Shown: positions 36,573 to 62,680 of the stretch, piece after piece
How the letters are laid out: every line of letters begins with the position of its first letter
How positions within the stretch are numbered: position 1 is the first letter of the stretch
Origin: Desulfobacterales bacterium
GTDB lineage: Bacteria > Desulfobacterota > Desulfobacteria > Desulfobacterales > JARGFK01
NCBI GenBank assembly: GCA_029211065.1
Contig: JARGFK010000001.1
Coordinates: 37,265-101,264, forward strand
Direction: 5' to 3'
DNA length: 64,000 bases
The notes under the pieces: model-generated
Databases searched by the model: none
What the model was told of the DNA's origin: nothing
Seen by the model: only the letters and a program-made list of their open reading frames with translations
Made by a program: the position numbers and the translations under genes

Positions 36573-37619
36573 ATGAAAAGAATTTTGCTGAGTACAGGAG
36601 TGGTGTTGCTTGCCCTGGCCCTGCTGTCGGTTACTCCTGGCATGGCCGCTGAAAAATTAATCAAGGGGAACCTGCGGATTGTCATCGGGTCCAAATCGAC
36701 TGGTGGGGATACCTATCAAAACTCCAGCATCGTCGCGGCCGCGCTGGCCAAGAAACTGGATATCAACGTCAAAGTTGATGCCACTGGGGTGAGTGCCGCT
36801 TTTAAGGCTCTCGAACAGGCTGGCGCCAGAGGCAACACTATCATGATCTTCCACGACCAGTCCTACCTAGGCAACCTCTACGGCGTCAAGGGGTACGATG
36901 ACATCTTCCAGAATTACATCATCGGGCCGACACTCGCCATCAACCCCGGCAATGCTTACCTGGTGCCGAAAAAGTCCCCTTACCAGACCATCAAAGACAT
37001 CATCGCCGCCTGCGGTAAAGGGACCAAGGTGCGGGTGGCCATCCAGCCCGGTGGCGTCTCGGAGATAGGCTACTCTGCGCTGAAAAATGCCATTAAACTC
37101 AAGTATCCGGGGATGGAAGCCAATCTGGTGGCGGTGAACACAGGCTCGCAGTCGGCCAAGGACCAGCTCTTGTTTGACGGCCAGGCCGATCTGATCAACG
37201 GGTCGGTGCAGGCCAACGAGCAGTACACCCGGCTGCCAGCCGACGACCAGAAGGCGATGCGTTTTGTCTGGTTGACCGCCCGCCAGCAGACAATTCAGCA
37301 GGCCAACCCGCAAGGGATGGGGGGGACCAATCGCGAGCAACTACTGCAGTATGTGGAGCCCAATGCCTATGTGCCCTATGACGAGAAAAGCAATTTCACT
37401 TTCGACAAGGAATTTTTCATCCTCTACAACAAGAAACTGGACCCGAAAATTATCAGCTATCTGGACAAGGCTCTGAGCGAAATCTATGCCGAAGGCAAGA
37501 TCCAGCAGACGCAAAAAAAATCCTTCTTTATCCCGGACTTCCTGCCTTCTGGTGAGGCCCAGGCGTACTTGAAAGAGAAAAATGAGAAGTATAGAAAAAT
37601 CATCAACGCCATCAAGTAA
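36573..37619 (+). CDS. tctC: Periplasmic substrate-binding protein, TctC/Bug-like (divergent)
   Basis: Signal peptide MKRILLSTGVVLLALALLSVTPGMAA; immediately upstream of tctB/tctA. The family call rests mainly on context. Confidence 0.6.
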   Translation: MKRILLSTGVVLLALALLSVTPGMAAEKLIKGNLRIVIGSKSTGGDTYQNSSIVAAALAKKLDINVKVDATGVSAAFKALEQAGARGNTIMIFHDQSYLGNLYGVKGYDDIFQNYIIGPTLAINPGNAYLVPKKSPYQTIKDIIAACGKGTKVRVAIQPGGVSEIGYSALKNAIKLKYPGMEANLVAVNTGSQSAKDQLLFDGQADLINGSVQANEQYTRLPADDQKAMRFVWLTARQQTIQQANPQGMGGTNREQLLQYVEPNAYVPYDEKSNFTFDKEFFILYNKKLDPKIISYLDKALSEIYAEGKIQQTQKKSFFIPDFLPSGEAQAYLKEKNEKYRKIINAIK

Positions 37620-37732
37620 GGCATCCTCAACCTCCCCCCGATCCCTGGTGCGGGGGGAGCAAGCTTAATTTCAGGACAAGAGGGTTTCACCGGATAAGCC
37701 GGGGCATTACCAGCTGATCAAAAGGTTCTTCC

Positions 37733-38176
37733 ATGGATAATGGGTTGTCGTCATTGTTTAAGGTTTCTATCGATTTCAAGGAATCGCATACCTTTTTTCC
37801 GACCATTGTGATCTGGGTATTGCTGTTCCTCGTGCTGCTGATTTTCCTGATTTATGGCATCCCCTATGTGCGAGACCTGCGCAGCGGCAAACGCAAGATG
37901 GCATTCAGTCTGGCAAATATGGACAAGCTCAGATTCGGTGGGACTCTGGTGCTGACCGTCGCCTATTTTCTGCTGATGGACTATGTAGGCAGGTTTTTCC
38001 CGAACATGGGCTTCGGCTTCCTGTTCGTGTCGATCCCTTTCATTTTCCTGCTCTCTCTGCTCTACGTGCACGGGGTTGACCGCCGCAAGCTCCTGGCAAT
38101 CAGCCTGAACGCCCTGATTGCTCCGAGTGTCGCCTGGTACGTGCTGGCGCAGCTGTTCAATATTTCCCTGCCCTGA
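37733..38176 (+). CDS. tctB: Tripartite tricarboxylate transporter small membrane subunit (TctB-like)
   Basis: 147 aa, 4 hydrophobic segments, between the tctC-like gene and tctA. Confidence 0.7.
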   Translation: MDNGLSSLFKVSIDFKESHTFFPTIVIWVLLFLVLLIFLIYGIPYVRDLRSGKRKMAFSLANMDKLRFGGTLVLTVAYFLLMDYVGRFFPNMGFGFLFVSIPFIFLLSLLYVHGVDRRKLLAISLNALIAPSVAWYVLAQLFNISLP

Positions 38177-38197
38177 AGACGTGGAGATTAGTTTGTT

Positions 38198-39709
38198 ATG
38201 GAATATTTTGCGGACCTGTCGGTTACCTATTATCTGCTGATTCCCGTCGGAGTGATGATCGGAATCATCTTCGGGGCCATTCCGGGAATGACCGCGACCA
38301 TGGCAGTGGCGGTCTGTCTGCCACTGACCTATGCCTTGAATCTCAACCAGGGGCTGGCATTGCTCCTCGGGCTATACGTAGGTGGAATTTCCGGAGGTCT
38401 GGTCCCGGCGATTCTCTTGAATATCCCCGGAACCCCATCCTCGATTACCACCACTTTTGATGGCTATCCCATGACGCTTAAGGGGGAGAGTGAAAAGGCA
38501 CTCAAGATCGGTATCGTCTCTTCGTTGTTCGGAGGGCTTCTCAGTGCAGTGATCCTGTTTTGTTTCGCGCCGGTGCTGGCGGATGTTGCGATTAAGTTCT
38601 CTTACATCGAAAAGTTCCTGATCATCTTTCTCGCCCTGACGGTGATCGCATCCCTATCGAAAAACCTTCTGGCGGGGATCTTCAGCGGGGTGCTCGGCGT
38701 GCTGTTCAGTCTGATCGGAACTTACGACATCTCCTTGGGAGGGAACGGCGACATCCGGCTGATGTTTCCCTTCTTGGAATATTACCTTGAAGATGGGTTC
38801 TCGCTGATGCCGGTGTTGATCGGCCTGTTCGGCTTAGCCACCATCCTCGAAGAAGCGGAGAAGGGGTGCCGGGATGAACCCTTGGGCACAGATCTGTCGC
38901 TGTCAAAGCGCTCCAAGTTCTCCATTCACTATTTTAAAGGACAGGTCATCAACCTTTTCCGATCCGGCCTCCTTGGCACATTCATCGGCATGCTACCCGG
39001 GGTTGGCGGCAGTGCGGCTTCGGTGCTTTCCTACACTCAAGCCAAGAACTTCTCGAAGAACCCGGAAAAAATGGGTAAGGGGGCCCCGGAGGGGGTGATC
39101 GCTTCTGAAGCGGCCAACAATGGCCTGACTGGCGGTGCGCTGATCCCTCTACTCTCTCTGGGAATCCCTGGTGACAGTACCACCGCAGTGCTGATCGGCG
39201 CTTTCACCTTGCAGGGAATCCAGGTCGGCCCGCTGTTCATCGGCGAAAATCTGGGGACCTGGCATACCATGATGCTGGCCCTGCTGATAGCCAATCTTAT
39301 TATGTTCCTTGTCATGTTTTATGCCATCAAGTACATTGTCAAGGTGATCACAGTCCCCAAGTATATTCTCTATCCGATCATCCTGATGATGTGTGTGGTC
39401 GGTTCCTACGCTATCAATTACGGCGTAATGTTCGATGTCTGGACCCTGCTGATCTTCGGCATCTTCGGCTACCTGGCGCAGAAAGTCGGCATCGAGATCG
39501 CCCCCTTCATTATCGGTTTCATTCTCGGCAAATCGGCGGAGGTCTATTTCGTCAAAAGCCTCGAATCCTTCGGTACCCTGACGATCTTTTTCACCAAGAG
39601 CCCGATCGCTATGTTTCTCTGGGTGCTGATCTTTATGTCGGTAGGCTACTCGATTTACACGACCATCAAGAGCTATCGGAAGAACAAACGCACTGGAAGC
39701 ACCGCTTAA
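38198..39709 (+). CDS. tctA: Tripartite tricarboxylate transporter large permease (TctA family)
   Basis: 503 aa polytopic; [18 protein letters not shown] and [16 protein letters not shown] motifs. Confidence 0.88.
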
Positions 39710-39755
39710 AGAGTGGTCGCTCTTCAGCAGAACTATTCAGACCAAGGAATCGCAG

Positions 39756-41294
39756 ATGGGAATCACCAAGACTGGACATCAGACTATTCAAGTGGACGAG
39801 CACGATAACGTCGCTATTGTCGTTATTGCCGGTGGTCTCAAGAGCGGTGAATTGCTTGATAACGGCATCAAACTGATAGACGACGTTCCCCAGGGTCACA
39901 AGGTAGCACTTGCCGATCTAGCTGCAGGCGACCCCATCATGCGGTATGGTGAGGTTATTGGATATGCAGCCGATGCAATTGCCCGGGGCAGTTGGATCAG
40001 TGAAGTACGGGTTCGCCTGCCGGAGGTGTTACCTCTGGCGGAGATAGCCCGTGGCACTAGACCGGTGCCGGATCTGAAGCCGCTTGAAGGCTATACCTTT
40101 GAAGGGTTCCGCAACGCAGACGGCACAGTGGGGACAAAAAACATCATGGGAATTACCACCAGCGTCCAGTGTGTTGCCGCCGTTGCTGATTATGCTGTCC
40201 GGCGTATCAAGCAGGATCTACTGCCTCGCTATCCGTACGTCGATGACGTAATCGCCCTCAACCATGCCTATGGCTGCGGCGTGGCAATTGATGCTCCGGC
40301 TGCCGTTGTGCCGATTCGGACCCTTCAGAACTTGGTTGTCAATCCCAATTTAGGAGGCGAAGTTCTGGTCTTAGGACTTGGTTGTGAGAAGCTGATGCCG
40401 CAGCGATTGCTTCAGGATATAGAGCAGGCGGAAGCCAGCATCATTGAACTCCAGGATGAAGATCTTTATGGGTTTGATGCCATGGTTTCAGCAATCCTTG
40501 AGGCAGCGGAAAAGAAGCTGGTTCGTTTGAACCGGAGACGTCGTAAAACCTGCCCGATGTCCGACCTGAGGGTCGGCCTGCAATGTGGCGGTAGTGATGC
40601 CTTCTCCGGCATTACCGCCAACCCCGCAGTCGGTTTTGCAGCCGACCTGATGGTGCGCGCCGGGGGAACGGTGGTCTTCTCGGAGGTGACCGAAATACGG
40701 GATGCTGTTCACCTGCTGGTACCCCGCGCCAGCAATCAAACCATAGCAAAAGCGCTGCTTCGCGAGATGGCATGGTATGACCGCTACCTGCAAGCCGGTG
40801 GGGTCGACCGCAGTGCAAACCCCACGCCCGGCAACAAGGCGGGAGGCCTGGCCAATATCGTGGAAAAGGCGTTGGGTTCGATCGTCAAGTCCGGCACCAG
40901 CCCGCTGGTTGACGTGCTTGGCCCCGGAGAGCGCCTGCGCACCAAGGGTCTTGTGTTCGCGGCGACACCGGCCAGCGACTTCGTTTGTGGCACACTGCAG
41001 CTATCCGCCGGCATCACATTGCAGGTATTCACCACTGGACGCGGCACACCCTACGGTTTGGCGATGGCCCCTGTGATCAAGGTCTGCACCCGCTCAAACT
41101 TAAGCAGGCGCTGGCACGATCTAATCGATCTTGACGCCGGCCGGATCGCAACCGGAGACGCCAGTATAGCCGATGTCGGTTGGGAGTTGTTTCACCTAAT
41201 TCTTGATGTTGCCAGCGGACGAAAAACAGCCGCCGCGGATCGTCTCGGGCTGCACAATGATTTAGTGCTGTTTAATCCCGCCCCTATAACTTGA
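39756..41294 (+). CDS. garD: Galactarate dehydratase (UxaA/GarD family, SAF N-terminal domain)
   Basis: DNVAIVV...PQGHKVAL...[74 protein letters not shown]. Matches E. coli GarD as recalled. Confidence 0.9.
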
Positions 41295-41350
41295 TCCGCC
41301 AGGCCGGCGCCAACTCACGTTAGAAGGAAAACCTATCAAAGGTAGACACT

Positions 41351-42484
41351 ATGAGAAGCCAGTGTGAAGGAGATCACATCGCTCGTATCAAGCTTTCCAA
41401 GGTCCTGCTGCCCCTGGACCATGCCTTCAGCGATGCCAAAGTTTTTGTCGGCCGACAACGACCTCTACAGCATGTAAACTTGATGTTTGCAGAAATCGAC
41501 AGCGCTCAGGGTTATGACGGCTTAGGCTTCAGCTATGCCCTTAGGTGCGGAGGTGCAGGACAGTTTGCGCATGCCTGCGAGATTGCGCCGCTGATAGTTG
41601 GTGAAGACCCGAATGATATTTCGAAAATCTGGAGCCAATTGCTTTGGGCTGGGGCGTCGGTTGGCCGCAGCGGCATTGCGGTCCAGGCGATGGCCGCCAT
41701 CGATATCGCGCTCTGGGACATGAAAGCGAAGCGGGCCCGGCTTCCGCTTGCCAAACTCATCGGGGCATACCGGGATTCCGTGCCGTGTTATAACACATCC
41801 GGAGGTTATCTTCAGGCCCCGATTGAGGAAATCCTCGAAAAAGCCGATCGCTCACTTGAACGAGGCATCCAGGGGGTGAAGATTAAGGTCGGCCAGCCGG
41901 ACATGGCGGCGGATCTCAAACGCGTCGAAGCCCTCCGTAAACACCTGGGGGATGAGGTGCCGATCATGGTCGATGCCAACCAGCAATGGGACCGAATGGC
42001 TGCCTTGCGCTTCGGCCGCCAGGTTGAAGCACTAAATTTGGCATGGATCGAAGAGCCTCTTGATGCATATGATGCCGAGGGCCACGCCGCCCTCGCTGCC
42101 GCGATAGATACCCCAGTCGCAACTGGAGAGATGCTGTCCAGCGTTGACGAACACCGTGGTCTGATAACCCATGGGTCGGTGGACATCATCCAGCCAGACG
42201 CCCCTCGGATCGGGGGCATCACCCCCTTTCTGCGCTTGGCCGACCTGGCAGACCAGGCGGGTTTGGGCATGGCGCCACACTTCGTAATGGAAATCCATAT
42301 CCATCTGGCCGCCTGCTATCCGAGAGAACCGTGGCTTGAACACTTCGAATGGCTGGAACCGCTCTTCAATGAACGGTTGAAAATCAACAATGGGCAGATA
42401 GAAGTTCCCAATCAGCCTGGACTGGGCTTTTCACTAAGCACACAAATGCGACAATGGACGATGGAAGCCATTTCCATTGAATAA
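41351..42484 (+). CDS. Enolase-superfamily enzyme, mandelate-racemase subgroup (candidate L-talarate/galactarate or tartrate dehydratase)
   Basis: KxK motif (VKIKVG), metal ligands VDANQ / IEEP / TGE, IIQPD...APH dyad. Confidence 0.8.
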   Translation: MRSQCEGDHIARIKLSKVLLPLDHAFSDAKVFVGRQRPLQHVNLMFAEIDSAQGYDGLGFSYALRCGGAGQFAHACEIAPLIVGEDPNDISKIWSQLLWAGASVGRSGIAVQAMAAIDIALWDMKAKRARLPLAKLIGAYRDSVPCYNTSGGYLQAPIEEILEKADRSLERGIQGVKIKVGQPDMAADLKRVEALRKHLGDEVPIMVDANQQWDRMAALRFGRQVEALNLAWIEEPLDAYDAEGHAALAAAIDTPVATGEMLSSVDEHRGLITHGSVDIIQPDAPRIGGITPFLRLADLADQAGLGMAPHFVMEIHIHLAACYPREPWLEHFEWLEPLFNERLKINNGQIEVPNQPGLGFSLSTQMRQWTMEAISIE

Positions 42485-47997: not shown

Positions 47998-48125
47998 TTC
48001 GTAAAAAGTCCCCAAAGCCGTCATTCCCGCGAAAGCGGGAATCCATACCAGCTGAAAATAATGGATTCCGGGTCAAGCCCGGAATGACAGACAAGGTGAA
48101 TTTTGCCTTTTTACGAGTTCATCAA
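47998..48125. mobile_element. MITE-like repeat, family 1, copy A (partner at 59032-59160)
   Basis: Terminal inverted repeats tcgtaaaaag...ctttttacga; internal hairpins tcattcccgcgaaagcgggaatcc and attccgggtcaagcccggaat; shared 3' end tttttacgagttcatcaa. Confidence 0.75.
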
Positions 48126-51356: not shown

Positions 51357-51800
51357 ATGAAATTAAAACAAATTACCATTTCAATTGAGAATTCACCGGG
51401 GCGCCTTTACGAAGTAACCAAAGCACTGGGCGATGCCGGTATTAACCTGCGAGCTTTAAACCTGGTGGATACCGGTGCGTTTGGCCAGCTGCGCCTTCTG
51501 GTTTCGGACATCACCACCAGTCGACGAATCCTGATGCAGATGCAAATGCCGGCGATGGTCACTGAAGTCATCGCGGCGGAGATCGAAGATAAACCCGGCA
51601 GCCTGGCGGCGATGCTGAAATCGCTGCTGGATGCCCATATCAATGTTCTTTATACCTATGCGTTTGTCGGATTTTCAGTCGGAAACGCCGTGATGATATT
51701 TCGATTCAGCGACAACGACGCGGCCATCAATGTCTTGCAAAAAAACGGCATCAAACTTCTGGACGCCAAAGCTTTCGGCATTTTAGAAACGAACGGCTGA
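51357..51800 (+). CDS. Tandem ACT-domain protein
   Basis: 147 aa; two ENSPGRL/EDKPGSL beta-alpha-beta-beta-alpha-beta starts. Confidence 0.75.
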   Translation: MKLKQITISIENSPGRLYEVTKALGDAGINLRALNLVDTGAFGQLRLLVSDITTSRRILMQMQMPAMVTEVIAAEIEDKPGSLAAMLKSLLDAHINVLYTYAFVGFSVGNAVMIFRFSDNDAAINVLQKNGIKLLDAKAFGILETNG

Positions 51801-51943
51801 CAAAGCCTCAATGGTTGCCGGCTTGATCAGGCCATAAAAGAATTGAGACCTTAATGGGGCCAAAGTGGATGTTTTGAAAAGGTCTCGAACTACAGCTCTT
51901 CGGGTTCAGCGAATCATTTACGTATAGCAAAAAGGGGGTCTTG

Positions 51944-52891
51944 ATGGAAAGTCAGTCGAAATTTCGTCCCCGAAAATTTGCGGTGGTGGGTGCGGGGCCG
52001 GTGGGATGTATCGTTGCAGCCTTTCTATCGAAAGGGGGTTATGAAGTTACCCTCTGTGATGTGATACCTGAATTGATAGCGCCGGCAGTGAATCCGGGAA
52101 TTATTATTGAAGGCGCCGAAAATATCCGCCATCCGGTTGCAAAAACATGCCACACGGTGGACGAACTTGCCGACGACCCGCCGGATGTCATATTTCTGAC
52201 GGTTAAGGCAAACGCGATTCCGCTGATCGCCTCAGCCATAGAGGGCTTCCATTGCGAGGGCATGTATGTCGTCAGTTGGCAGAATGGGATCGATACGGAG
52301 CTTGCCATTGCTGCGACTCTCGGCAAAAAACCGGTCCTGCGCGCCGTTGTCAATTATGGATGCGGACTTCTAAAGCCGGGGCACGTGCACATGCCGTTTC
52401 ATCACCCCCCCCATCATATTCAGGAACTGGATCCGGATACTTCCGATGCTGCTGTTGCCATTGCCGCGGCGCTCACCCGGAGCGGCCTGCCGACAAACCA
52501 CACCGATCGGATCGTAACAATGGTCTGGCGCAAGGCGATTCTGAATGCCTGCATGAATCCCGTTTGTGCGGTAACGGGTATGACGATGGCGCAGGCCATG
52601 GGCGACCCGATGGTCTTCCAGATTATCGATTCTCTGGTTAAAGAATGTGTCAAGGTGGCCCGGGCCAATGAAATCAGCTTGGGATGGGATTTTTATCCCT
52701 ACTGCATGGAGTATATGAAAAGCGCGGGCAATCACAAACCCTCCATGCTGGTGGATATCGAAAATAAACGCCGCACCGAGATCGACTTTATCAACGGAAA
52801 ATTTATTGAGTACGGTGAGCAGGCCGGTGTGACGACACCCTATAACGTGACCCTTCGTTCTCTGGTCAAGGGACTCGAATCAAGACTGTAG
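51944..52891 (+). CDS. Ketopantoate reductase (PanE/ApbA)-family 2-oxoacid reductase
   Basis: KFAVVGAGPVGCIVAAFL Rossmann start; ...NGIDTE..., WRKAILNACMNPVCAV, PSMLVDIENKRRTEIDFING. Confidence 0.8.
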   Translation: MESQSKFRPRKFAVVGAGPVGCIVAAFLSKGGYEVTLCDVIPELIAPAVNPGIIIEGAENIRHPVAKTCHTVDELADDPPDVIFLTVKANAIPLIASAIEGFHCEGMYVVSWQNGIDTELAIAATLGKKPVLRAVVNYGCGLLKPGHVHMPFHHPPHHIQELDPDTSDAAVAIAAALTRSGLPTNHTDRIVTMVWRKAILNACMNPVCAVTGMTMAQAMGDPMVFQIIDSLVKECVKVARANEISLGWDFYPYCMEYMKSAGNHKPSMLVDIENKRRTEIDFINGKFIEYGEQAGVTTPYNVTLRSLVKGLESRL

Positions 52892-52988
52892 ATGCCGGTC
52901 TCGATGGTTTCTGTTTCAAGGCTGTGATCGCTTGACGGCTGCATCTTTTTGATCCGTATTCTCTCGCATTCGTTGGAAAACGAACCAA

Positions 52989-53780
52989 ATGAAAACACAA
53001 GAGGGCAAGCGCCTGTATATCGGCGTTGATGTGGGCGCTTCCAGAACCAAGGCGGTGGTGATGGATGCACACAAAAACCTGCTCGGTCGGGAAGTGCGGC
53101 CTTCCGGAACCGATTTCGGCGAAGCTTCCCGTCGCTGCCTGGCTAACGCCCTTCACATGGCCGGCGCCGACGAGAGCCATATTGCCCGAACCGTGTCCAC
53201 CGGCTACGGTCGTAAAAACGTAGCTTACAGCGACGATACCCGTACCGAAATCGGTTGTCATGCCAAAGGATGTTATTTCTACTTTCCGAAGGCTATCACC
53301 ATTATCGATATCGGCGGCCAGGACAACAAGATCATCAAACTGGACGAGGCCGGTCGACGTCTCGGTTTCAAGATGAATCGCAAATGTGCGGCCGGAACCG
53401 GCGCTTTTCTCGAAGAGATGTCTCCCCGCCTGGACATTCCGCTTGAAGACATGGATCGTCTGGCCAGGCAATCGGAAGACATGGTGAAACTGGGAAGTTT
53501 CTGTACGGTATTTTCCGCCACGGAAGTGCTGCAGAACATCCGCCAGGGCAGAAAAGTCGCGGATATCGTTAAAGGGCTCTTTTTCTCGGTGATCAAGCGG
53601 GTTTCGGAAATGGATTCATTGAGCGAGAATGTGGTTATGACCGGCGGCGTGGTGGCCCACAATCCCTTTCTGGTCCGGATGATGGAAGAGATCATCGGCC
53701 GCAGTATTCTGGTTCCCGACTATCCTCAACTGACGGGTGCGGTGGGGGCCGCTTTGTATGCCATTGAAAACAGCAGTTAA
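52989..53780 (+). CDS. BcrA/BcrD/HgdC-type ATPase, activator of (R)-2-hydroxyacyl-CoA dehydratase
   Basis: YIGVDVGASRTKAVV, IIDIGGQDNKII, MNRKCAAGTGAFLE, SFCTVFSATEV, VMTGGVVAHN. Confidence 0.88.
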   Translation: MKTQEGKRLYIGVDVGASRTKAVVMDAHKNLLGREVRPSGTDFGEASRRCLANALHMAGADESHIARTVSTGYGRKNVAYSDDTRTEIGCHAKGCYFYFPKAITIIDIGGQDNKIIKLDEAGRRLGFKMNRKCAAGTGAFLEEMSPRLDIPLEDMDRLARQSEDMVKLGSFCTVFSATEVLQNIRQGRKVADIVKGLFFSVIKRVSEMDSLSENVVMTGGVVAHNPFLVRMMEEIIGRSILVPDYPQLTGAVGAALYAIENSS

Positions 53781-53806
53781 ACTGTCAGCGACCATGGAGG
53801 AATATT

Positions 53807-55063
53807 ATGTCTGAAGAAAAAAAAGTCATCATCCGGCGGCTTAATGCCGCGAAAGATCTTGGAAAATTCATGGCCGATTACTACTACGAACTGGATGCGG
53901 CCTCGAAATCCGGGAAACAGAAGATCGCCTGGTGCACCAGCGTGGGCCCGGCTGAAATTCTAAGGGGGATGGGATATCTGATTTATTTTCCGGAAACGCA
54001 TTCCGCCATGCTCGGCAGCACCCGCATGGCCACGGACCTGATCCCCAAGGCCAATGCCATGGGGTATTCCCCGGAGATCTGTTCCTATCTTACTGCCGAC
54101 ATCGGAGCGTTTCTCGAAAACGTCACGCCGCTGGCAAATATTTTCAAGGGGATTGAAAGCATCCCTCGACCCGATGTGCTGGTATACAACACCAACCAGT
54201 GCCGCGACGTTCAGGACTGGTTCAACTGGTATGCCAAGCGATTTAACGTGCCGGTTGTGGGCATCGAAACCTACCGAAACGTTCCCGAGGTTACCCCGGT
54301 GCACATCACATCCATTTCACGGCAGATGGAGAATATCGTCCAGCCGCTGGAAGACGTCGCCGGCCGCAAGCTGGATATGGATGAATTTAAAAACGCGGTG
54401 GCCCTGTCGCGCGAATGCTCAAATCTGTGGGATAAGTGCCTGGCGGCCGCGGCCGCCCGCCCGTCCCCGCTGACGTTTTTCGACGGTACGACCCTGATGG
54501 GGCCCGCCGTGGTCGGCCGGGGAACCCAAAAGGCCATCGATGTCTACCAGCTGCTCCTCGAAGAACTTAATGAGCGAGTTGCGGCCGGCGAGGGCGCCAT
54601 CGAAGATGAACGCTATCGGCTTTATTGGGACGGTATGCCCGTATGGGGCCGCTTGAGTATGCATTCCAAGCTGTTCGCCGGCCTGCAGGCCAATGTGATC
54701 GCGTCGACCTACTGCAGCAGTTGGATATTTAGTGCGCTCGATGCGGGCAATCCCTTCGAGAGCATGGCCCGTGCTTACACGGAACTTTTTATCGTGCGTT
54801 CCGACGCTTACAAGGAGAAATATATCCAGGACAAGCTGGCATTCTTTCAATGCGACGGCATCATCTACCACGATGCCAAAACCTGCCCCAACAACACCAA
54901 TTGCCGTTACGGCATGGCGCAACGCCTGGAGAAAACAACCGGCATTCCCAGCCTGACCATACACGGGGACCTGAACGACCTGAGGCTTCTCTCCGATGAA
55001 CAGACCAAAACCAATGTCGAAGCCTTTATCGAACAACTGGAAGAAAATGGAAAGGCGGCCTAA
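53807..55063 (+). CDS. 2-hydroxyacyl-CoA dehydratase family subunit (HgdA/HgdB/BcrC-like, HGD-D domain)
   Basis: KIAWCTSVGPAEIL..., PEICSYLTADIG, DGIIYHDAKTCPNNTNCRYG, HGDLNDLR; directly downstream of the activase. Confidence 0.8.
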   Translation: MSEEKKVIIRRLNAAKDLGKFMADYYYELDAASKSGKQKIAWCTSVGPAEILRGMGYLIYFPETHSAMLGSTRMATDLIPKANAMGYSPEICSYLTADIGAFLENVTPLANIFKGIESIPRPDVLVYNTNQCRDVQDWFNWYAKRFNVPVVGIETYRNVPEVTPVHITSISRQMENIVQPLEDVAGRKLDMDEFKNAVALSRECSNLWDKCLAAAAARPSPLTFFDGTTLMGPAVVGRGTQKAIDVYQLLLEELNERVAAGEGAIEDERYRLYWDGMPVWGRLSMHSKLFAGLQANVIASTYCSSWIFSALDAGNPFESMARAYTELFIVRSDAYKEKYIQDKLAFFQCDGIIYHDAKTCPNNTNCRYGMAQRLEKTTGIPSLTIHGDLNDLRLLSDEQTKTNVEAFIEQLEENGKAA

Positions 55064-55163
55064 CCCGGATATTTTATGAAATATTCGGGCGAACGATATT
55101 TTTCGTCACAAGGCAGGCTGTATGTTTGCCTGCGAGCATTCAGTCTCATTAAGGAGGAATCAT

Positions 55164-57245
55164 ATGATAGACGCACTGTTCGAACCGAAAGGGGTGGCGG
55201 TGATCGGCGCTTCTGCGAAAGAACTTCATATCGGGAACCGGATCATCAAAAACCTGGTCGATTTCGGATATACCGGGGACATCTATCCGATCAATCCCAA
55301 TGCGGATGAAATCCGGGGCCTGAAGGCCTATAAATCCGTTCTGGATGTTCCGGGGCAGGTCGATGTGGCCCATATGGTCATACCGGCCCGGTTTACCCCC
55401 CAGGCCTTTGAAGACTGCGGCAAAAAAGGGGTCCGGCACATCATCATCAACTCCGGCGGTTTTTCGGAAACCGGACCCGAGGGCGAAGCCATCGAAAAGG
55501 CCTTCATGGACGTGGCGCGTCAATACGGCATGCGGGTCTTGGGCCCCAACTGCCAGGGCATCATCAACTCGGATCCCAAAATTCGGGCCTACTGCAACTT
55601 TACCTTCACGTTTCCGGAGCCCGGTTCCATTTCCATCGTGGCGCTAAGCGGCGGGGTTGCCGAACTGATCCACCAGGGATTTGTCGCCATGGGGGTGGGC
55701 ACACGGATTTACGCCTCCAACGGAAACGCCTGCGACGTGAGCATCCCGGAGATTATCCGCTATCTGGGCGAAGACGAAAAAACCCGGGTCATCGTGACCT
55801 ACGTGGAGGGGCTGAGAAATCCGTCCGAGTTCATAGCGGCGGTCACCCACGTGGCGGCCAGAAAACCGGTCCTGGCCATGAAAGCGGGCCGGACGGCCGC
55901 GGGCGCCAAGGCGGCGGCATCGCATACCGGCGGGCTTGCCAAAGAAGATCTGGCCACCGATCTGATCTTTAAAAAAGCCGGTGTTTTAAACTTCATGGAT
56001 GAAGGTGAATTGATCGCCGCGGCCGCGGCCTTTGCGACCCAGCCGATTCCCAAGGGCAATCGGGTGGGCATTATCACCAATACCGGCGGGCCGGCGGTGA
56101 TTGCCACCGATGTTTTTGTGGGCGCCGGTCTGGAATTGCCGTCACTTTCCGAAAAAACAGAGGCCTTTTTGAAAGAACGCCTGTTTCCGGATGCCTCGAT
56201 CCGCAATCCAGTGGATGTGCTGGCCACTGCTCCGGCCGAGCATTTCCGGTTCTGCCTGGATGCCATGATGGCGGACGACAATTTCGACGCGGTGTTTGTC
56301 AACTTCGTTACGCCCTTTTTCGTGGAAACCGACAGCATCGTCAGAGAGATCGTGACGGTCAGCCAAAAACAGTTGAAACCGATTGTCTGCAACCTGATGA
56401 CCGATCGGCGTCAGTGGACCGAGACCGTCAGGATTCTTCGCGAAGGCGGCGTTCCCTTTTTTGCGTTTCCCAGCGAGGCGGCCCGCGCCATGGCCGCTTT
56501 GGTGCGCTATCAACAGATTCGGCAGCAGGACGCCGGACGGGTCGTGATCTTTGACGATGTGGACAAGCCCCGGGCCGAAGCGATTCTGCAAAAGGCCGCG
56601 GCCGCCGGACGAAAGCGTCTGTCGGCGGCAGAGGTCTTTGAAATTCTGGCTGCCTATAAAATTCCGGTGGTCGACTGGGGCGCGGCCGATAGCGTTGAAG
56701 CAGCGGTTGCAACTGCGCAGCAAATCGGTTTCCCGGTGGCTGTCAAGGCGGATTCGGCCGCGGTCGTTCACAAGAGCGATATGGGCGCCGTGGCCCTCGA
56801 CCTGAAAGACCCGGCTGCGGTCCGGGCTGCCGTTGAAAAGATGAAACAGAAAATCGAGGCCGACGATCTGTCCTTTTTCGTTCAGAAATATGTGCCCGGC
56901 GGCCTGGAGATCGCCCTGGGCGCCAAAGCCGAAGCGGGTCTCGGCCATCTGATCATGTTCGGCCTGGGCGGCATCTTTGTGGAAGTATTAAAAGACGTGG
57001 TGTTCAACCTGATGCCGGTGACCGACGCCGAGGCCGACCGGATGCTGTCCGACATAAAGGGCGCCGCACTGCTTGCCGGGGTCCGGGGCCGCCGGGGTGT
57101 CGATCGGGAGGCCGTCAAAGAGCTCATCTGCCGGCTATCGCAACTGGTCGGCGATTTGCCCGTCATTTCGGAAATGGATATCAATCCGGTGTTGGCTTTT
57201 GAAGACAGGGCCGTCGTCGTGGATGCCAGAATTTCGCTTGATTGA
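55164..57245 (+). CDS. ADP-forming acyl-CoA synthetase (CoA-binding + succinyl-CoA-synthetase-like + ATP-grasp fusion). ATG 55164 with an aaggagg SD.
   Basis: MIDALFEPKGVAVIGAS...IGNRIIKNL..., GPNCQGIINS, ASHTGGLA, C-terminal ATP-grasp FPVAVKADSAAVVHKSDMGAVALDL. Confidence 0.88.
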   Translation: MIDALFEPKGVAVIGASAKELHIGNRIIKNLVDFGYTGDIYPINPNADEIRGLKAYKSVLDVPGQVDVAHMVIPARFTPQAFEDCGKKGVRHIIINSGGFSETGPEGEAIEKAFMDVARQYGMRVLGPNCQGIINSDPKIRAYCNFTFTFPEPGSISIVALSGGVAELIHQGFVAMGVGTRIYASNGNACDVSIPEIIRYLGEDEKTRVIVTYVEGLRNPSEFIAAVTHVAARKPVLAMKAGRTAAGAKAAASHTGGLAKEDLATDLIFKKAGVLNFMDEGELIAAAAAFATQPIPKGNRVGIITNTGGPAVIATDVFVGAGLELPSLSEKTEAFLKERLFPDASIRNPVDVLATAPAEHFRFCLDAMMADDNFDAVFVNFVTPFFVETDSIVREIVTVSQKQLKPIVCNLMTDRRQWTETVRILREGGVPFFAFPSEAARAMAALVRYQQIRQQDAGRVVIFDDVDKPRAEAILQKAAAAGRKRLSAAEVFEILAAYKIPVVDWGAADSVEAAVATAQQIGFPVAVKADSAAVVHKSDMGAVALDLKDPAAVRAAVEKMKQKIEADDLSFFVQKYVPGGLEIALGAKAEAGLGHLIMFGLGGIFVEVLKDVVFNLMPVTDAEADRMLSDIKGAALLAGVRGRRGVDREAVKELICRLSQLVGDLPVISEMDINPVLAFEDRAVVVDARISLD

Positions 57246-57314
57246 CCCATTTTTTTGAATCGATTCTTTCAGGACTGGTTTAACCGACACTGAATTGAGT
57301 GAAAGGAGATCGTC

Positions 57315-58871
57315 ATGGCATTATGGATGAACCTCGGACAGCAGTTGAAAGTCAATGCCAGAAAATTTCCGCAAACCGTTGCGCTGAAAGACAGCCGGCG
57401 GCAATTTACCTATCCGGAGCTCAACAGGCGGGTCAATCGCCTGGCCCACGGTCTTGGCGGGCTCGGTCTTGGAAAAGGGGACAAATTGGCGGTGCTGCTG
57501 GAAAACAGTATCGAGTTCATTGAGGTCTATCTGGCCGCGGCCAAGACCGGCATCGTGATCGTGCCCATTAATTTCAGGCTGCTGGGGCCGGACGTCGAAT
57601 TCATTGTCAACAACTCCGATGCCCGCGCCATGATTGTCCACGATGAATTTACAGCGGTTGTCGGCGCCGTCAGGGACCGGCTGGAAAACGTGCGCCCGGA
57701 AAACTTTATCGCCGTCGGAAATACCTGTGAAGGCTACCGGAATTATGAAGACATCATGCAGGGGGCATCCGAACATGAGCCGGATGTCCGCGTAGCGCCC
57801 AAAGATGCCTGGATTCTGATCTATACCTCGGGCACCACCGGCAAACCCAAGGGGGTGGTCCGTTCCCACGAATCCCACATCGCCTTTTATCTGATCAACG
57901 CCGTCGATTTCGGCTTCAACGCGCACGACATCTGTTTGAACGTCATGCCGTTGTGTCATATCAACTCGACTTTTTTTACCTTCACCTTTACCTATGTCGG
58001 CGCCACCGTATATGTCCATCCGGCGCGATCATTCAGACCCGAAGAAATTCTTGAGATTATCGAACGCGAAAAGATCAGCTTTATTTCGCTGATTCCGACT
58101 CATTACAACACGATTCTCAACGTTTCCGAAGATGCGAAAAAGCGGGATGTCGGTTCCATCCGCAAACTGCTGTGCTCTTCCGCGCCGGTTCGGAAAAACA
58201 TGAAGCTGGCCATCATGGAGTTCTTTCCCGGCGTTCAACTCTACGAAGGCTATGGCTCCACGGAAGCCGGGATTGTCACGGTGCTAAAACCCGAAGACCA
58301 GATGCGCAAGCTGGGCTCCATCGGCTATGAATCTTTGGGAACGGACTTTGTCAAAATCTGCGATGAAAGCGGACGCGAGGTGCCGGTGGGCGAGGTCGGC
58401 GAATTGTACTCCCGGGGGCCCATGCTGTTCGATGAATACTACAAGCTGCCGGATAAAACGGCTGCCGCTTTTCATGGCGAGTGGTTTTCAGCCGGCGATA
58501 TGGCCCGCATGGACGCAGACGGCTTTTATCAGATTGTCGACCGCAAGGACAATATGATCATTACCGGCGGCGAGCATGTTTATCCCAGTGAGGTCGAAGA
58601 CGTGATCGGCAGCATGCCCGAAGTGTTCGACGTGGCAGTCATCAGTTTGCCGGACGACAAATGGGGCGAGCGGGTGACGGCCGTGGTGATTCCAAAGACG
58701 GAAATCGATCAGGCAGCCATTATCGAGGTCTGCCGGGCCAAACTGCCCGGCTTCAAGGTCCCCAAGCAGGTGCTGATCATAGCAGACGACGAAATGCCCC
58801 GAACGGCCACCGGCAAGATTCTCCACCGCATTCTCAGGGAGCGCTATGGGGAAGGGGGAAAAGGGCCCTAG
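57315..58871 (+). CDS. AMP-forming acyl-CoA ligase (ANL superfamily)
   Basis: LIYTSGTTGKPKGV, YGSTEAG, DRKDNMIITGGEHVYPSEVE, PRTATGKILHR. Confidence 0.9.
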   Translation: MALWMNLGQQLKVNARKFPQTVALKDSRRQFTYPELNRRVNRLAHGLGGLGLGKGDKLAVLLENSIEFIEVYLAAAKTGIVIVPINFRLLGPDVEFIVNNSDARAMIVHDEFTAVVGAVRDRLENVRPENFIAVGNTCEGYRNYEDIMQGASEHEPDVRVAPKDAWILIYTSGTTGKPKGVVRSHESHIAFYLINAVDFGFNAHDICLNVMPLCHINSTFFTFTFTYVGATVYVHPARSFRPEEILEIIEREKISFISLIPTHYNTILNVSEDAKKRDVGSIRKLLCSSAPVRKNMKLAIMEFFPGVQLYEGYGSTEAGIVTVLKPEDQMRKLGSIGYESLGTDFVKICDESGREVPVGEVGELYSRGPMLFDEYYKLPDKTAAAFHGEWFSAGDMARMDADGFYQIVDRKDNMIITGGEHVYPSEVEDVIGSMPEVFDVAVISLPDDKWGERVTAVVIPKTEIDQAAIIEVCRAKLPGFKVPKQVLIIADDEMPRTATGKILHRILRERYGEGGKGP

Positions 58872-59031
58872 ATGTTTAATCTGTAGGAAGGACGCCTGCG
58901 GTGCAGATTGAGGCGGGGAGAGCGATGCCTGTTGATTGACCATGTATTTGGAGCACCCGATAGGATAGTCTTACTTGACAGGCTTTGCCTTTTATTTTTG
59001 TTTGTAAAATACAAATTCCCAAAATGATTAT

Positions 59032-59160
59032 CTTGTAAAAAGTCGAAAATGCGCCTCTTTCGTCATTCCCGCGAAGGCGGGAATCCAGGAATTTCAGACG
59101 GTTCTGGATGTCGGATCAAGTCCGGCATGACAATTGGAGTACTTTTTACGAGTTCATCAA
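59032..59160. mobile_element. MITE-like repeat, family 1, copy B
   Basis: cttgtaaaaagtc...gtcattcccgcgaaggcgggaatcc...tgtcggatcaagtccggcatgaca...actttttacgagttcatcaa; same ends as copy A. Confidence 0.75.
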
Positions 59161-59170
59161 ATTTTGGTAA

Positions 59171-59240
59171 TTGGAATTTGCCCTTCGACCCGGCTCAGGG
59201 CGGTGAGCCAGCCGAACCGTTTGATATTTGGGATTTGATA
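59171..59240 (+). repeat. Repeat family 2, copy 2
   Basis: ttggaatttgcccttcgacccggctcagggcggtgagccagccgaaccgtttgatatttggg; matches the reverse complement of 30085-30158. Confidence 0.75.
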
Positions 59241-59346
59241 CTTGGAATTTCAATAAGTAAATGAAATAACAACACAGGATAACCAAATTCTGGCCTCTGG
59301 GTCAGGATTCTTTTTTATTTGATTATTTATCGGAGAGGAGACCATC

Positions 59347-60537
59347 ATGTTGACAAAAGCGTTCATACCGTACCAAGGCTATTACAGTACCCCCTTTTCC
59401 AGATGGCAGGGTACGATGGCCAATGAAAATTCAATCGTGCTGGCGGCGAATACCTCCAGCCGATGGTTTACCCGCAAGAACTGGGACCCCAAGATGTTCG
59501 ATTATCTCTTTCTGGGAATCACGATACACCAGCTCCATGGATTTTACGGCGGTCCCTGGGCTGCGGCGCTCATGGGCGCACCGGGCATTCCCGGGGTGAT
59601 ATTGAGCCAGGCCTGTACCACATCCACCACCAGTATTTTTCAGGCTGCGACGGGCGTTGAGACCGGGCTTTATCAGAATGCCTACTGCCTGATGACCGAT
59701 CGCTGTTCCAACGGCCCCCATGCGGTCTGGCCCAACCCCAATGGGCCGGGGGGCGAAGTCATTTCCGAGAACTGGCTGATGGACAACTTCAGTCAGGACC
59801 CCTGGGCCAAAAACGCCATGATTCAAACCGCTGAAAACGTTGCAAAGGAGACCGGCATCAAACGGGAGGAATGCGACGCCGTCACCCTCCGGCGCTACGA
59901 ACAGTACATGGATGCCTTTGCCGACGACAAGGCCTTCAAAAAGCGCTACCTGTTTCCGGCCGAAGTCAGGATTTCCAAAAAAGAAGTCAAGCTGGTGGAG
60001 GATGACGAAGGCATTATGCCCACTACCGCCGAAGGCCTGGCCGGGCTCAGGCCCGTCGTACCGGACGGCGTCCATACGTTCGGCTCCCAGACCCATCCGG
60101 CCGACGGCAACTGCGGCCTGGCTATAACCACCCGTGAAAAGGCCAAAGAACTGAGCGCCGACCCCAAGATAGAGGTCCAGGTAATATCTTTCGGATACGC
60201 CCGCACCAAAAAAGGGTTTATGGCCATGGCAGTGGTGCCGGCAGCGCAGATGGCGCTGGACAAAGCCGGCATCACCGTAAAGGACGTCAAGACCATCAAA
60301 ACCCACAACCCCTTTGCGGCCAATGACATTTACATGGCACGGCAGATGAACATCGATGTCAACAGCTTCAACAACTACGGCAGCTCGCTGATATTCGGGC
60401 ATCCCCAGGCGCCCACAGCCGGACGCCTTCTCATTGAAGGGATTGAAGAAACGGCCATGGCCGGCGGCGGCTATCTGCTACTGGGCGGGTGTGCGGCCGG
60501 CGATACGGCCGCCGGGCTGGTGTTGAAAGTCGGATAG
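59347..60537 (+). CDS. Divergent thiolase-family protein (acetyl-CoA C-acyltransferase-like)
   Basis: SQACTTS (nucleophile Cys context), NPFAANDI, GSSLIFGHPQAPTAGR, GGCAAGDTAAG. Confidence 0.8.
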   Translation: MLTKAFIPYQGYYSTPFSRWQGTMANENSIVLAANTSSRWFTRKNWDPKMFDYLFLGITIHQLHGFYGGPWAAALMGAPGIPGVILSQACTTSTTSIFQAATGVETGLYQNAYCLMTDRCSNGPHAVWPNPNGPGGEVISENWLMDNFSQDPWAKNAMIQTAENVAKETGIKREECDAVTLRRYEQYMDAFADDKAFKKRYLFPAEVRISKKEVKLVEDDEGIMPTTAEGLAGLRPVVPDGVHTFGSQTHPADGNCGLAITTREKAKELSADPKIEVQVISFGYARTKKGFMAMAVVPAAQMALDKAGITVKDVKTIKTHNPFAANDIYMARQMNIDVNSFNNYGSSLIFGHPQAPTAGRLLIEGIEETAMAGGGYLLLGGCAAGDTAAGLVLKVG

Positions 60538-60566
60538 TAATACGAACAAAATCTCACCAGCAAAAA

Positions 60567-60612
60567 GCTCGCTGATTGCATGGTTTAATGCAGCAATCAG
60601 CGAGCCTTTTTG
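60567..60612 (+). terminator. Rho-independent terminator after the thiolase gene
   Basis: 13-bp perfect stem gctcgctgattgc / gcaatcagcgagc, 13-nt loop, then cttttt. Confidence 0.85.
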
Positions 60613-61605
60613 TTCCTTGGAATAATAGAAGTTTTGATTATGGAATTAGATATCTTAAAAAATTTATTTTATGAGAGTGGTTGATGGAGGCAAGGAAGTG
60701 CCTGTTTAAGGAGCGTCAAAATGTGAAGATAACTTGAACCCATCAAACAATTAAACAGTGCAGAATGGATCAGACGTTCTTTATTGATTTTTATAGAATT
60801 CTGTCGAGCACTGATAGCCGCTATATGCGTTTTGAGGTTCTCACCGTAAGCCGGGCACTAATGGTCGGAGTCCTCGCTCACCTGCTTGACGATTAGGACT
60901 TAAGGATCGTAGCCACAGACCTAACTTTCGGAAAGATTAAACATACATCTGATAGTGTGAAATTTTCAGGACCTCCGGACGTCATTATTTTCAGTGATTT
61001 TCTTCCAATCTGGGTGCCGCTGCTTCTGATCATCATGTGTAACACCCGCCATACTCAACCATACTCGCTGTATGCAAAAACTTTCAATAACGAAAAAAAC
61101 TCAACCAAGCTGGATTCATACTAAAATAGTGACATTTTCAACCATACTGATGGTATTTGCTACAGATTAATTTCCAGCTCAGGATGAATGGGAGGCCAAT
61201 TTGAAATGTAAATTTAAGATACCACGAAATGAATTGAACGCGCAATAATTATATGTGTTTCAGAGTCATGTACGATAGAGAACTGCCAGAGATAATCTCC
61301 AATATTCAAGACAATTCAAAAATGGGTAGAGGGACGGTCTTGTTTTAATGCATTAAGGTTCCAAGAAGGTTAGTAAGGGAATGGCGGATTTTCTATGAGT
61401 TGGCCACTACATACCGGTTGATTCAACTATTTCCACCTGAGATATCTTCTGGAGATCGCAGCCGCATCAAAACTACAGATATGAGAGTAGTATCTCAAGG
61501 CCAAGAAAAATTGTTATAAGAGAATAGTAGCCGAAATGGAGTATTGTTTTTATATTTTCAAACGACTTTGGTTGTTTTAAATTAAATCGTATGAATGTCA
61601 ACGGA

Positions 61606-61909: not shown

Positions 61910-62680
61910 CTAGATGATCTGTTGTTCCTCGAATTTGCGGCTGATGCTTTCCGCCGCTTCCCTGGTGGCCGTTACCAACGCCTTCATTTTATCATCGTCA
62001 AGGGTCATTTTAAATCCCACCACCCAGATCGCGGCGCTAAAATGCCGATTTAAACGGATCGGTGCGGCCACGGCCCGGACTCCGGGGATATATTCCTCAT
62101 AATCAGCGGCATAACCCATCTTTCGAACCTGTTCAATATCGGAAAGATACTGCTGCGGATCGGTGGCGGTATTATCCGTATATCGGGGGATTCCTTTGGA
62201 TTGAATGATTTGGGACGCCCGGGACGCATTCATTTCGGCCAGGAAAACTTTTCCGGCAGCGCCTGCCATCAGCGGAAGGGCTGTTCCCACCGGGGAAGTG
62301 ATTTTAAGGTCGTTGCGGGATTCGACGATATCCAGGATGGTGATGTGCTCGCCGTTCAGCACCCCCAGGAAGACAGACTCCTGGGTTATTTCCATCAGGT
62401 TTTCCATCACCGGCCGGGCCAGGTCTTTTAAATCGAACTGGGAATAGGCTGCTTTGCCCAGCTCCAGAAGCGTCAGCCCCGAGCGATACCGTTTGGTGGC
62501 GGGGTCGCGCATGATGGCGCCAAGTTCTTCCAGGGCGGCGGTGATGCCGTGGACCGTACTTTTACCGATCCCCAGCTCTTTGGACAGGTCACTGATTTTA
62601 AGCCCCTGGGCGGATTTGGTGACCAGTCTCAAAATCTCAAACGCTTTTGTTACGGACGGTGCAAGATATTTCGGCGGCAT
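61910..62680 (-). CDS. IclR-family transcriptional regulator
   Basis: N-terminal wHTH KAFEILRLVTKSAQGLKISDLSKELGIGKSTVHGI; C-terminal IclR effector domain of typical ~250 aa size. Confidence 0.88.
   Translation of the reverse strand: MPPKYLAPSVTKAFEILRLVTKSAQGLKISDLSKELGIGKSTVHGITAALEELGAIMRDPATKRYRSGLTLLELGKAAYSQFDLKDLARPVMENLMEITQESVFLGVLNGEHITILDIVESRNDLKITSPVGTALPLMAGAAGKVFLAEMNASRASQIIQSKGIPRYTDNTATDPQQYLSDIEQVRKMGYAADYEEYIPGVRAVAAPIRLNRHFSAAIWVVGFKMTLDDDKMKALVTATREAAESISRKFEEQQII

Follow-up and report, generated by a model that had tools for sequence, protein, structure and literature searches.

A widely conserved gene cluster of sulfate-reducing Desulfobacterota, built around a lone HGD-D-family protein, is a candidate route from phenylpyruvate or phenyllactate to benzoyl-CoA

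A 64,000-nucleotide stretch of DNA from a Desulfobacterales bacterium (GenBank assembly GCA_029211065.1, contig JARGFK010000001.1, positions 37,265 to 101,264 of the forward strand; hereafter, the window) carries at 51.3-60.6 kb a cluster of seven plus-strand genes centered on a lone iron-sulfur protein of the HGD-D family. The cluster is a real and widely conserved predicted operon of sulfate-reducing bacteria. We propose, with a probability of about 0.6, that it turns phenylpyruvate or phenyllactate into benzoyl-CoA by means of an oxygen-sensitive radical dehydratase made of one type of subunit. Gene content and order, intact catalytic motifs, family relationships, co-occurrence with the benzoyl-CoA pathway and orthology to a published cluster are shown here; all of the reactions, the substrate and the oligomeric state are inferred from homology and genomic context. 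An initial annotation of this DNA had put forward the same pathway logic (a 2-oxoacid reductase, activation by a ligase, an activase-dependent dehydratase and a thiolase), and that logic fits every test that we ran.

Family assignments were based on Pfam and NCBIfam profile searches of the window's proteins at curated cut-offs. The cluster opens with a tandem ACT-domain protein of 147 amino acids (aa) (51357-51800; PF19571 ACT_8, E 3e-19). It is followed by a PanE/ApbA-family NAD(P)H 2-oxoacid reductase (316 aa, 51941-52891; PF02558, PF08546, TIGR00745), an ATP-dependent activase of the HgdC/HadI/BcrAD type (263 aa, 52989-53780; PF01869 at 171 bits, TIGR00241) and the lone, alpha-like HGD-D-family protein (418 aa, 53807-55063; PF06050 at 201 bits over residues 46-411). 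Next come a fused alpha-beta ADP-forming acyl-CoA synthetase (707 aa, 55122-57245; CoA_binding_2, Succ_CoA_lig and ATP-grasp_5 domains), an AMP-forming acyl-CoA ligase (518 aa, 57315-58871; PF00501 at 291 bits, PF13193) and a divergent thiolase (396 aa, 59347-60537; Thiolase_N 63 bits, Thiolase_C 59 bits). All lie on the plus strand, separated by gaps of 140, 97, 26, 58, 69 and then 475 bp, and an intrinsic terminator on the same strand (60559-60614; a hairpin, then a T run) closes the cluster. The initial annotation had listed seven same-strand elements from reductase to thiolase: all six enzyme genes, the miniature inverted-repeat transposable element (MITE) between ligase and thiolase, and the strong terminator were found in place.

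The same arrangement recurs in many relatives. A search of one genome per species returned more than 560 relatives of the HGD-D protein, and synteny was determined from the 80 closest, which are 70-85% identical to it. These 80 all come from Desulfobacterota or from unclassified metagenome-assembled genomes, and include Desulfosarcina, Desulfatibacillum, Syntrophobacteraceae, Desulfoprunum benzoelyticum, and the Olavius Delta 1 and Delta 4 symbionts. The recurring order is PanE-type reductase, activase, one HGD-D protein, an optional ADP-forming synthetase, AMP ligase and thiolase, with identities of 60-85%. Counting a gene only when it kept the same order and strand, and using as denominators the loci with enough flanking DNA, we found the activase at 75 of 76 loci, the reductase at 66 of 71, the AMP ligase at 55 of 61, the ADP-forming synthetase at 44 of 71 and the thiolase at 32 of 58. 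Recurrence of one gene order at 80 loci, each of a different species, goes far beyond what chance would produce. Neighborhood conservation had been set beforehand as a check on the annotation, and the gene order was indeed kept across the 80 species.

Clustering of all open reading frames (ORFs) at these loci identified further partners. Directly upstream are the genes for the alpha and beta subunits of indolepyruvate:ferredoxin oxidoreductase (IOR; IorA at 33 of 51 loci, with a TIGR03336 score of 755 bits for a cut-off of 651; IorB at 36 of 55) and a PaaK-like ligase (33 of 57 loci). Farther upstream lie a dehydrogenase/hydratase fusion (12 loci) and the TIGR03201 protein Had (16 loci; 491 bits against a cut-off of 339). 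The ACT protein is found directly 5' of the reductase at 18 of 66 loci, and is probably a small-molecule sensor or accessory protein. The initial annotation had suggested that upstream ACT-domain and USP genes may be regulatory; USP, present at 0 of 80 loci, gained no support as a regulator. Neither USP nor rubrerythrin occurs in any of the 80 loci, and both were ruled out as parts of the system. One related locus (L100, G324:C3:252000-271900) is arranged differently: a 418-aa ORF and an IclR-like gene, not a PanE-type reductase, precede the activase and lone protein. This locus adjoins divergent thiolases, a dehydrogenase/hydratase fusion and Had, and some of its genes were mis-called by the ORF filter.

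Among solved structures, the HGD-D protein is closest to HadB of the Clostridioides difficile HadBC/HadI system (3o3m_A, E 5e-53 over residues 19-416; 184 bits); the values for MbdO (E 5e-26, 95 bits) and DCCP (E 2e-4) are much weaker. It has the PF06050 fold of 2-hydroxyacyl-CoA dehydratase systems, and the parallel to clostridial hydroxyacyl-CoA dehydratase routes that the initial annotation had drawn holds for this protein as for its activase, which matches HadI at E 3e-58. The HadB equivalog model NF052455 scores 226 bits against a cut-off of 750; the protein is therefore not a Had orthologue. Scores on the models of neighboring families are also below cut-off: 132 bits against 487 for BcrB (TIGR02260), 82 against 449 for BzdO (TIGR03191), and 57.5 against 350 for the double-cubane model NF040772, which aligns with residues 169-411 only. 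The combination that marks a catalytic subunit of class I benzoyl-CoA reductase, equivalog-level similarity together with a paired BzdN/BcrC-type subunit, was not found.

The most distinctive feature of the protein is its isolation. Instead of a heterodimer of homologous alpha and beta subunits, as in known 2-hydroxyacyl-CoA dehydratase systems, where alpha holds the substrate-binding cluster and beta a [4Fe-5S]-type cluster, the genes here encode a single subunit type: no second PF06050 gene is present here or in any of the 80 related loci. A beta subunit hidden elsewhere in the genome was considered and rejected, since the other HGD-D genes of the window's own genome form an alpha/beta pair of their own (contig C210) and G324, a genome that is 100% complete, contains the orthologue as its sole PF06050 gene. 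Given this single gene in G324, and clusters without a second one in 81 genomes, the enzyme must work without a paralogous partner; it presumably acts as a homo-oligomer. Compared with HadBC/HadI (3o3m, 4eht), the closest solved structures, the window's system has no HadC-like beta subunit, no HadA CoA-transferase and no LdhA-type dehydrogenase, and its HGD-D protein adds four invariant cysteines to the three that align with HadB.

These cysteines were compared across the family. Seven are invariant in 81 sequences (43, 92, 132, 204, 303, 360 and 366), of which only C92, C132 and C360 are common to HadB, the alpha paralogue on contig C210 and the cluster ligands of BzdO (Cys95/128/380; PMC11971306). 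Judged by the alignment alone, these three would be the cysteine ligands of a catalytic [4Fe-4S] cluster of the kind whose fourth iron stays free for water or substrate; C43 might conceivably occupy the fourth site. When the family was aligned with ten proteins above the double-cubane cut-off and with the C210 beta protein, C92, C132, C303 and C360 fell exactly on double-cubane ligand columns and C43 fell one residue off, while C204 and C366 were specific to the lone HGD-D family. The sixth double-cubane ligand lies in an insertion that the family does not have. Residue W42 aligns with a tryptophan of BzdO (Trp46 in the numbering of the paper) that fills a lost sub-cluster site (PMC11971306).

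On its cysteine pattern, the lone protein could instead be read as a reductase driven by ATP, of the double-cubane or benzoyl-CoA reductase type, that would act on an aromatic or unsaturated CoA ester within this catabolic island. Exact matches at four of six double-cubane positions, with C43 next to a fifth and C204 and C366 in addition, would suit such an enzyme, as would the single subunit type, which recalls DCCP, and the association with benzoyl-CoA pathway genes. We nevertheless regard this as unlikely. The sequence is far closer to HadB (184 bits; 226 on NF052455) than to BcrB (132), MbdO (95), BzdO (82) or DCCP (57), the site of the sixth cysteine is absent, and W42 is retained. Moreover, the protein is constantly accompanied by a 2-oxoacid reductase, whose product is just what a dehydratase needs, and 45 genomes of the phylum sample described below carry the ring-cleaving hydrolase Oah without the lone protein. 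DCCP itself (Carboxydothermus hydrogenoformans; 6eno, 7yyl) belongs to the same superfamily and likewise combines one subunit type with an ATP-dependent electron donor, but it is distant in sequence (18% identity by hhalign) and has the ligand that is missing here, and the window's activase is of the small HadI type.

The own-genome pair on contig C210 (C210:430-2892, locus L096) is a canonical alpha/beta HGD-D pair next to an activase gene truncated at the contig end. Cysteines 58/95/122/285/315/349 of its beta protein reproduce, at a constant offset of 22, the spacing of the [8Fe-9S] ligands 36/73/100/263/293/327 (PMC11971306) in BzdN, the electron-storage subunit of class I benzoyl-CoA reductase. 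The beta protein scores about equally on the HadC, DCCP and BzdN models (217, 197 and 196 bits), and the pair may be a double-cubane-containing heterodimeric enzyme.

The remaining proteins of the cluster are compatible with a dehydratase pathway. The initial annotation had called the reductase a PanE/ketopantoate-reductase-type dehydrogenase, and the protein matches PF02558 and PF08546 and scores 197 bits on TIGR00745 (cut-off 141). Both domains of the PanE/ApbA family are present, with a GAGPVG dinucleotide motif and with the catalytic lysine and glutamate (K198 and E280) invariant in 67 orthologues; an alternative start codon, ATG, lies at 51944. Every 2-dehydropantoate reductase equivalog model stayed below its cut-off, so a role in pantoate synthesis is not implied, and we propose the protein as a candidate enzyme for the conversion of phenylpyruvate to (R)-phenyllactate. 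The activase was likewise correctly placed in the HgdC/BcrAD type: it scores 217 bits on TIGR00241 (cut-off 125), and its closest solved relative is HadI (4eht, E 3e-58). Its cysteines C133 and C172 are invariant in 77 orthologues and stand 39 residues apart, like the cluster-bridging Cys127/Cys166 in HgdC. By sequence, it thus has the two cysteines per monomer with which an ASKHA-type activator bridges one [4Fe-4S] cluster.

A profile search of the cluster's proteins found no CoA-transferase domain, and hence no counterpart of the family III CoA-transferases (FldA, HadA, GctAB) of known 2-hydroxyacyl-CoA dehydratase systems. In their place are the AMP ligase and the ADP-forming synthetase, as the initial annotation had recognized. 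The nearest solved relatives of the AMP ligase, which has a TSGTTGKPK P-loop, are FadD5, FadD13 and a feruloyl-CoA synthetase. The closest solved relative of the ADP-forming synthetase is 8wzu, an ADP-forming 4-hydroxybutyrate-CoA ligase (E 5e-131), and a SHTG histidine motif is present at H268. Its occurrence at only 44 of 71 loci marks it as accessory or dispensable; it may either spare ATP in activation or conserve energy from a CoA ester. Lastly, the thiolase has the catalytic set of a degradative thiolase (the nucleophile C90, N321, H352 and the acid/base residue C382, invariant in 34 orthologues). It had been described as divergent, in agreement with its weak Pfam scores of 63 and 59 bits and with a TIGR01930 score of 165 bits against a cut-off of 241, and it is proposed here as a candidate 3-oxo-3-phenylpropionyl-CoA (benzoylacetyl-CoA) thiolase.

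A cluster of this kind has been annotated before, in a published study of Desulfococcus multivorans DSM 2059, and the window supplies another member. Table S1 of that study lists in series iorA3, iorB3, an ACT domain protein (Dmul_24880), a putative phenylpyruvate reductase (Dmul_24870, 319 aa) and a predicted R-phenyllactate dehydratase activator (Dmul_24860, 269 aa); the dehydratase orthologue is annotated as predicted R-phenyllactate dehydratase alpha, and FadD4 is Dmul_24840 (518 aa) (PMC5109826). Dmul_24840-24880 are orthologous to the window's genes and lie in the same order, with identities of 68% for the ACT protein, 61% for the reductase, 67% for the activase, 76-77% for the dehydratase and 65% for the AMP ligase (FadD4). 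Two 396-aa thiolases are also listed (Dmul_24650 and Dmul_24750; PMC5109826), and by tblastn the window's thiolase is 68% identical to each over all 396 residues. The two organisms differ in the surroundings of this core. In D. multivorans, IorA3B3 comes immediately before the core and a second AMP ligase and a TRAP transporter come after it, there is no ADP-forming synthetase, and the thiolase and dehydrogenase/hydratase fusion belong to an adjacent divergent cluster. In the Desulfobacterales bacterium the IorAB, PaaK-like and fusion genes occupy a different contig, the core includes the ADP-forming synthetase, and two repeats precede the thiolase.

The physiology of D. multivorans links these genes to aromatic compounds. 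Several proteins of the two adjacent clusters, among them FadD4, IorA3B3, the thiolase and the fusion protein, were reported to form specifically on phenylacetate or phenylpyruvate; the organism grows on phenyllactate, and the thiolase was assigned to benzoylacetyl-CoA cleavage (PMC5109826). The function of the D. multivorans cluster stands as published annotation only. In the literature that we searched, no biochemical study of this gene family was found, and only two papers touch on it: the D. multivorans study and a 2026 paper on the benzene degrader BzS1, which mentions a 'singular' FldB-like gene in passing (PMC13416013).

Genes that flank the cluster in other species are present in the window's own genome at a second locus. 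Contig C258 carries an IorA orthologue (73% identical), IorB and PaaK-like genes. Ahead of these are genes for a hydratase, a dehydrogenase/hydratase fusion, an SDR, an SCP-x-type thiolase and a small protein; two sensor kinases follow after. A homologue of Had is found 10 kb upstream on the same contig, as is Oah (546 bits on TIGR03200, cut-off 464). Ring cleavage in the benzoyl-CoA pathway, and the steps of beta-oxidation missing from the window, are thus covered by enzymes encoded elsewhere in this genome.

To place this association in the phylum, 400 Desulfobacterota genomes were searched for the HGD-D orthologue and for Oah. The HGD-D matches were bimodal: orthologues at 49-77% identity (E <=5e-141) and paralogues at no more than about 37% (E >=4e-86). 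The orthologue was present in 79 of the 400 genomes, including G223, where the gene is in two pieces (56-58% identity). Oah was found in 67 of these 79 genomes, versus 45 of the 321 without the orthologue, and eight genomes, from six of the sampled families, have both genes on a single contig at a distance of 10-57 kb. A role for the lone protein as the general ring reductase of the pathway was ruled out, given the 45 genomes with Oah and no lone protein; the aromatic link is side-chain processing that feeds benzoyl-CoA, not ring reduction. In nine genomes (G189, G097, G022, G345, G251, G193, G163, G260 and G070) the orthologue match contains one or two in-frame stops (TGA, TAA or TAG); match edges that run into a neighboring gene, sequencing errors and pseudogenes are all possible sources.

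The initial annotation had held that the substrate cannot be read from the sequence. We go a step further: an aromatic substrate class, of the phenylpyruvate/phenyllactate type, can be inferred from the conserved IorAB, PaaK-like and Had neighbors, from co-occurrence with Oah, and from the annotation and physiology of the D. multivorans orthologues. An alternative is the same chemistry on an aliphatic substrate (2-oxoisocaproate, 2-oxoglutarate or pyruvate/lactate), in a route like those of Had, Hgd or Lcd enzymes. The closest solved relative of the HGD-D protein is a 2-hydroxyisocaproyl-CoA dehydratase, some databases name its orthologues lactoyl-CoA dehydratase, 4-hydroxybutyrate is the substrate of the solved enzyme nearest to the ADP-forming synthetase, and 12 orthologue-bearing genomes are without Oah. 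We think this alternative very improbable, considering that the protein is not a Had orthologue, that the conserved neighbors are an equivalog-level IOR, a PaaK-like ligase, Had and a thiolase of the cinnamate cluster, and that the D. multivorans cluster responds to phenylacetate and phenylpyruvate (PMC5109826).

The direction of the pathway also has to be weighed, because the same enzymes could run in reverse: cinnamoyl-CoA or an aryl acid would be hydrated to phenyllactyl-CoA and oxidized to phenylpyruvate, which would feed IorAB or salvage aromatic amino acids. 2-Hydroxyacyl-CoA dehydratases are reversible, which counts for this direction, as does the ACT-domain protein in the cluster. The D. 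multivorans paper, too, reads its three genes as a conversion of phenyllactate to phenylpyruvate (PMC5109826). Against this, a catabolic pathway leading to benzoyl-CoA is indicated by the thiolase as well as by the dehydrogenase/hydratase fusion, Had and Oah, oxidation of free phenyllactate to phenylpyruvate requires neither a CoA ligase nor a radical dehydratase, and no attenuator or amino-acid biosynthesis gene was seen at the window's cluster. We accordingly give the reverse direction a rather low probability.

The proposed conversion to benzoyl-CoA shares its early chemistry with a clostridial pathway. The Fld system of Clostridium sporogenes converts phenylpyruvate to (R)-phenyllactate, phenyllactyl-CoA and cinnamoyl-CoA with the help of an ATP-dependent activator. 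We compared Fld (FldABC, the initiator FldI and the dehydrogenase FldH) with the window's cluster by description, not by sequence. In Fld the dehydratase is built from two subunits (FldB and FldC), FldA serves as the CoA-transferase subunit, the dehydrogenase belongs to a different family, and cinnamoyl-CoA is reduced to phenylpropionate as an electron sink; the window's cluster has one subunit type, ligases, a PanE-type reductase and a thiolase. A one-subunit cluster equipped with ligases and a thiolase points, unlike Fld, to oxidation to benzoyl-CoA.

On this scheme, the PanE-type reductase would first act on phenylpyruvate, perhaps also on the 4-hydroxy or indolyl analogues of this compound, and yield the (R)-2-hydroxy acid. 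The AMP ligase, or the ADP-forming synthetase where present, would then make the CoA thioester, replacing the clostridial CoA-transferase. The activase would spend ATP to inject one low-potential electron into the iron-sulfur center of the HGD-D protein, and the latter, as a homo-oligomer, would dehydrate phenyllactyl-CoA by a ketyl-radical route to cinnamoyl-CoA. A 3-hydroxyacyl-CoA dehydrogenase/enoyl-CoA hydratase fusion, the gene for which is on contig C258, would convert cinnamoyl-CoA to benzoylacetyl-CoA, and the thiolase would cleave this product to benzoyl-CoA and acetyl-CoA.

Several observations weigh against the scheme. The four extra invariant cysteines of the HGD-D protein are absent from HadB and from the own-genome alpha paralogue, and two of them are at or beside double-cubane positions; the metal center, and hence the chemistry, may therefore differ from those of a classical dehydratase, and the extra cysteines could hold a second cluster or a larger one. 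The window has no gene for the hydratase/dehydrogenase step, and a terminator-like hairpin stands directly 5' of the thiolase start, although its stability is indistinguishable from that of shuffled sequence. The odds ratio of 34 between orthologue and Oah is only indicative, since it is uncorrected for relatedness, and Oah was not detected in 12 of the 79 orthologue-bearing genomes. In the D. multivorans paper, the text does not state that dehydratase, activator and reductase were detected as proteins, and the reading given to their genes (Dmul_24850-24870), phenyllactate to phenylpyruvate, is not a route to cinnamoyl-CoA (PMC5109826).

The 475-bp gap between ligase and thiolase contains two dispersed repeats; in relatives without these insertions it is typically 30-70 bp. 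A MITE-like dispersed repeat of 129 bp occupies 59032-59160. It has 41 same-genome matches, of which at least 10 are full-length at 95-100% identity, and it also aligns with another copy in the window at 47998-48125. A second dispersed repeat, with 27 same-genome matches, abuts it (59161-59290). Copies of both repeat families are also present on contig C258, between the IorB and PaaK-like genes (C258:61384-61485) and past the sensor kinases (67517-67793); both halves of the split module have thus been invaded by the same elements.

Downstream of the thiolase, the initial annotation's strong terminator was borne out: the hairpin at 60559-60614 has a folding energy of -32.1 kcal/mol (z = -6.96), and 0 of 200 shuffled sequences were equally stable. 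Promoter and terminator scans of the cluster found nothing else that beat shuffled sequence. The roughly 1 kb past the terminator (60613-61605) has a G+C content of about 0.40, versus 0.50-0.58 in the cluster, and contains no ORF of 60 aa or more; a minus-strand gene for an IclR-family regulator (61910-62680) comes after it. Elsewhere in the window, a run of plus-strand genes at 36573-42484 comprises a 348-aa ORF, the tripartite tricarboxylate transporter subunits TctB and TctA, and members of the galactarate/altronate dehydratase and mandelate racemase/enolase families. This run appears to serve the uptake and dehydration of acid sugars and has no relation to the dehydratase cluster.

With the core already annotated in D. 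multivorans, what remains of interest is the single-subunit architecture, the extra cysteines and a possible role in the phenylacetate route. A more speculative idea, which we hold only tentatively and consider doubtful, has two parts. The lone-subunit enzyme might represent an intermediate stage in evolution from homodimeric double-cubane proteins to heterodimeric dehydratases or the reverse, with more than one [4Fe-4S] cluster per subunit (involving C43, C303, and C204 or C366), and the cluster, together with IorAB and PaaK, might be the missing phenylacetate route of sulfate reducers that have no PadBCD/PadEFGHI. IOR would then work in reverse and carboxylate phenylacetyl-CoA reductively to phenylpyruvate, which would be reduced to phenyllactate and activated. 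The radical enzyme would dehydrate phenyllactyl-CoA to cinnamoyl-CoA, and beta-oxidation would convert this to benzoyl-CoA.

The window adds one member to this family, and an example of a module that is split over two loci and invaded by repeats. For enzymology, a relative of the dehydratases that works without a beta subunit and carries cysteines typical of double-cubane proteins is a natural experiment. The orthologue is present in about one fifth of the sampled Desulfobacterota genomes (79 of 400), a phylum whose members mineralize much of the organic matter of anoxic sediments, and the conserved module offers a concrete, testable route towards benzoyl-CoA.

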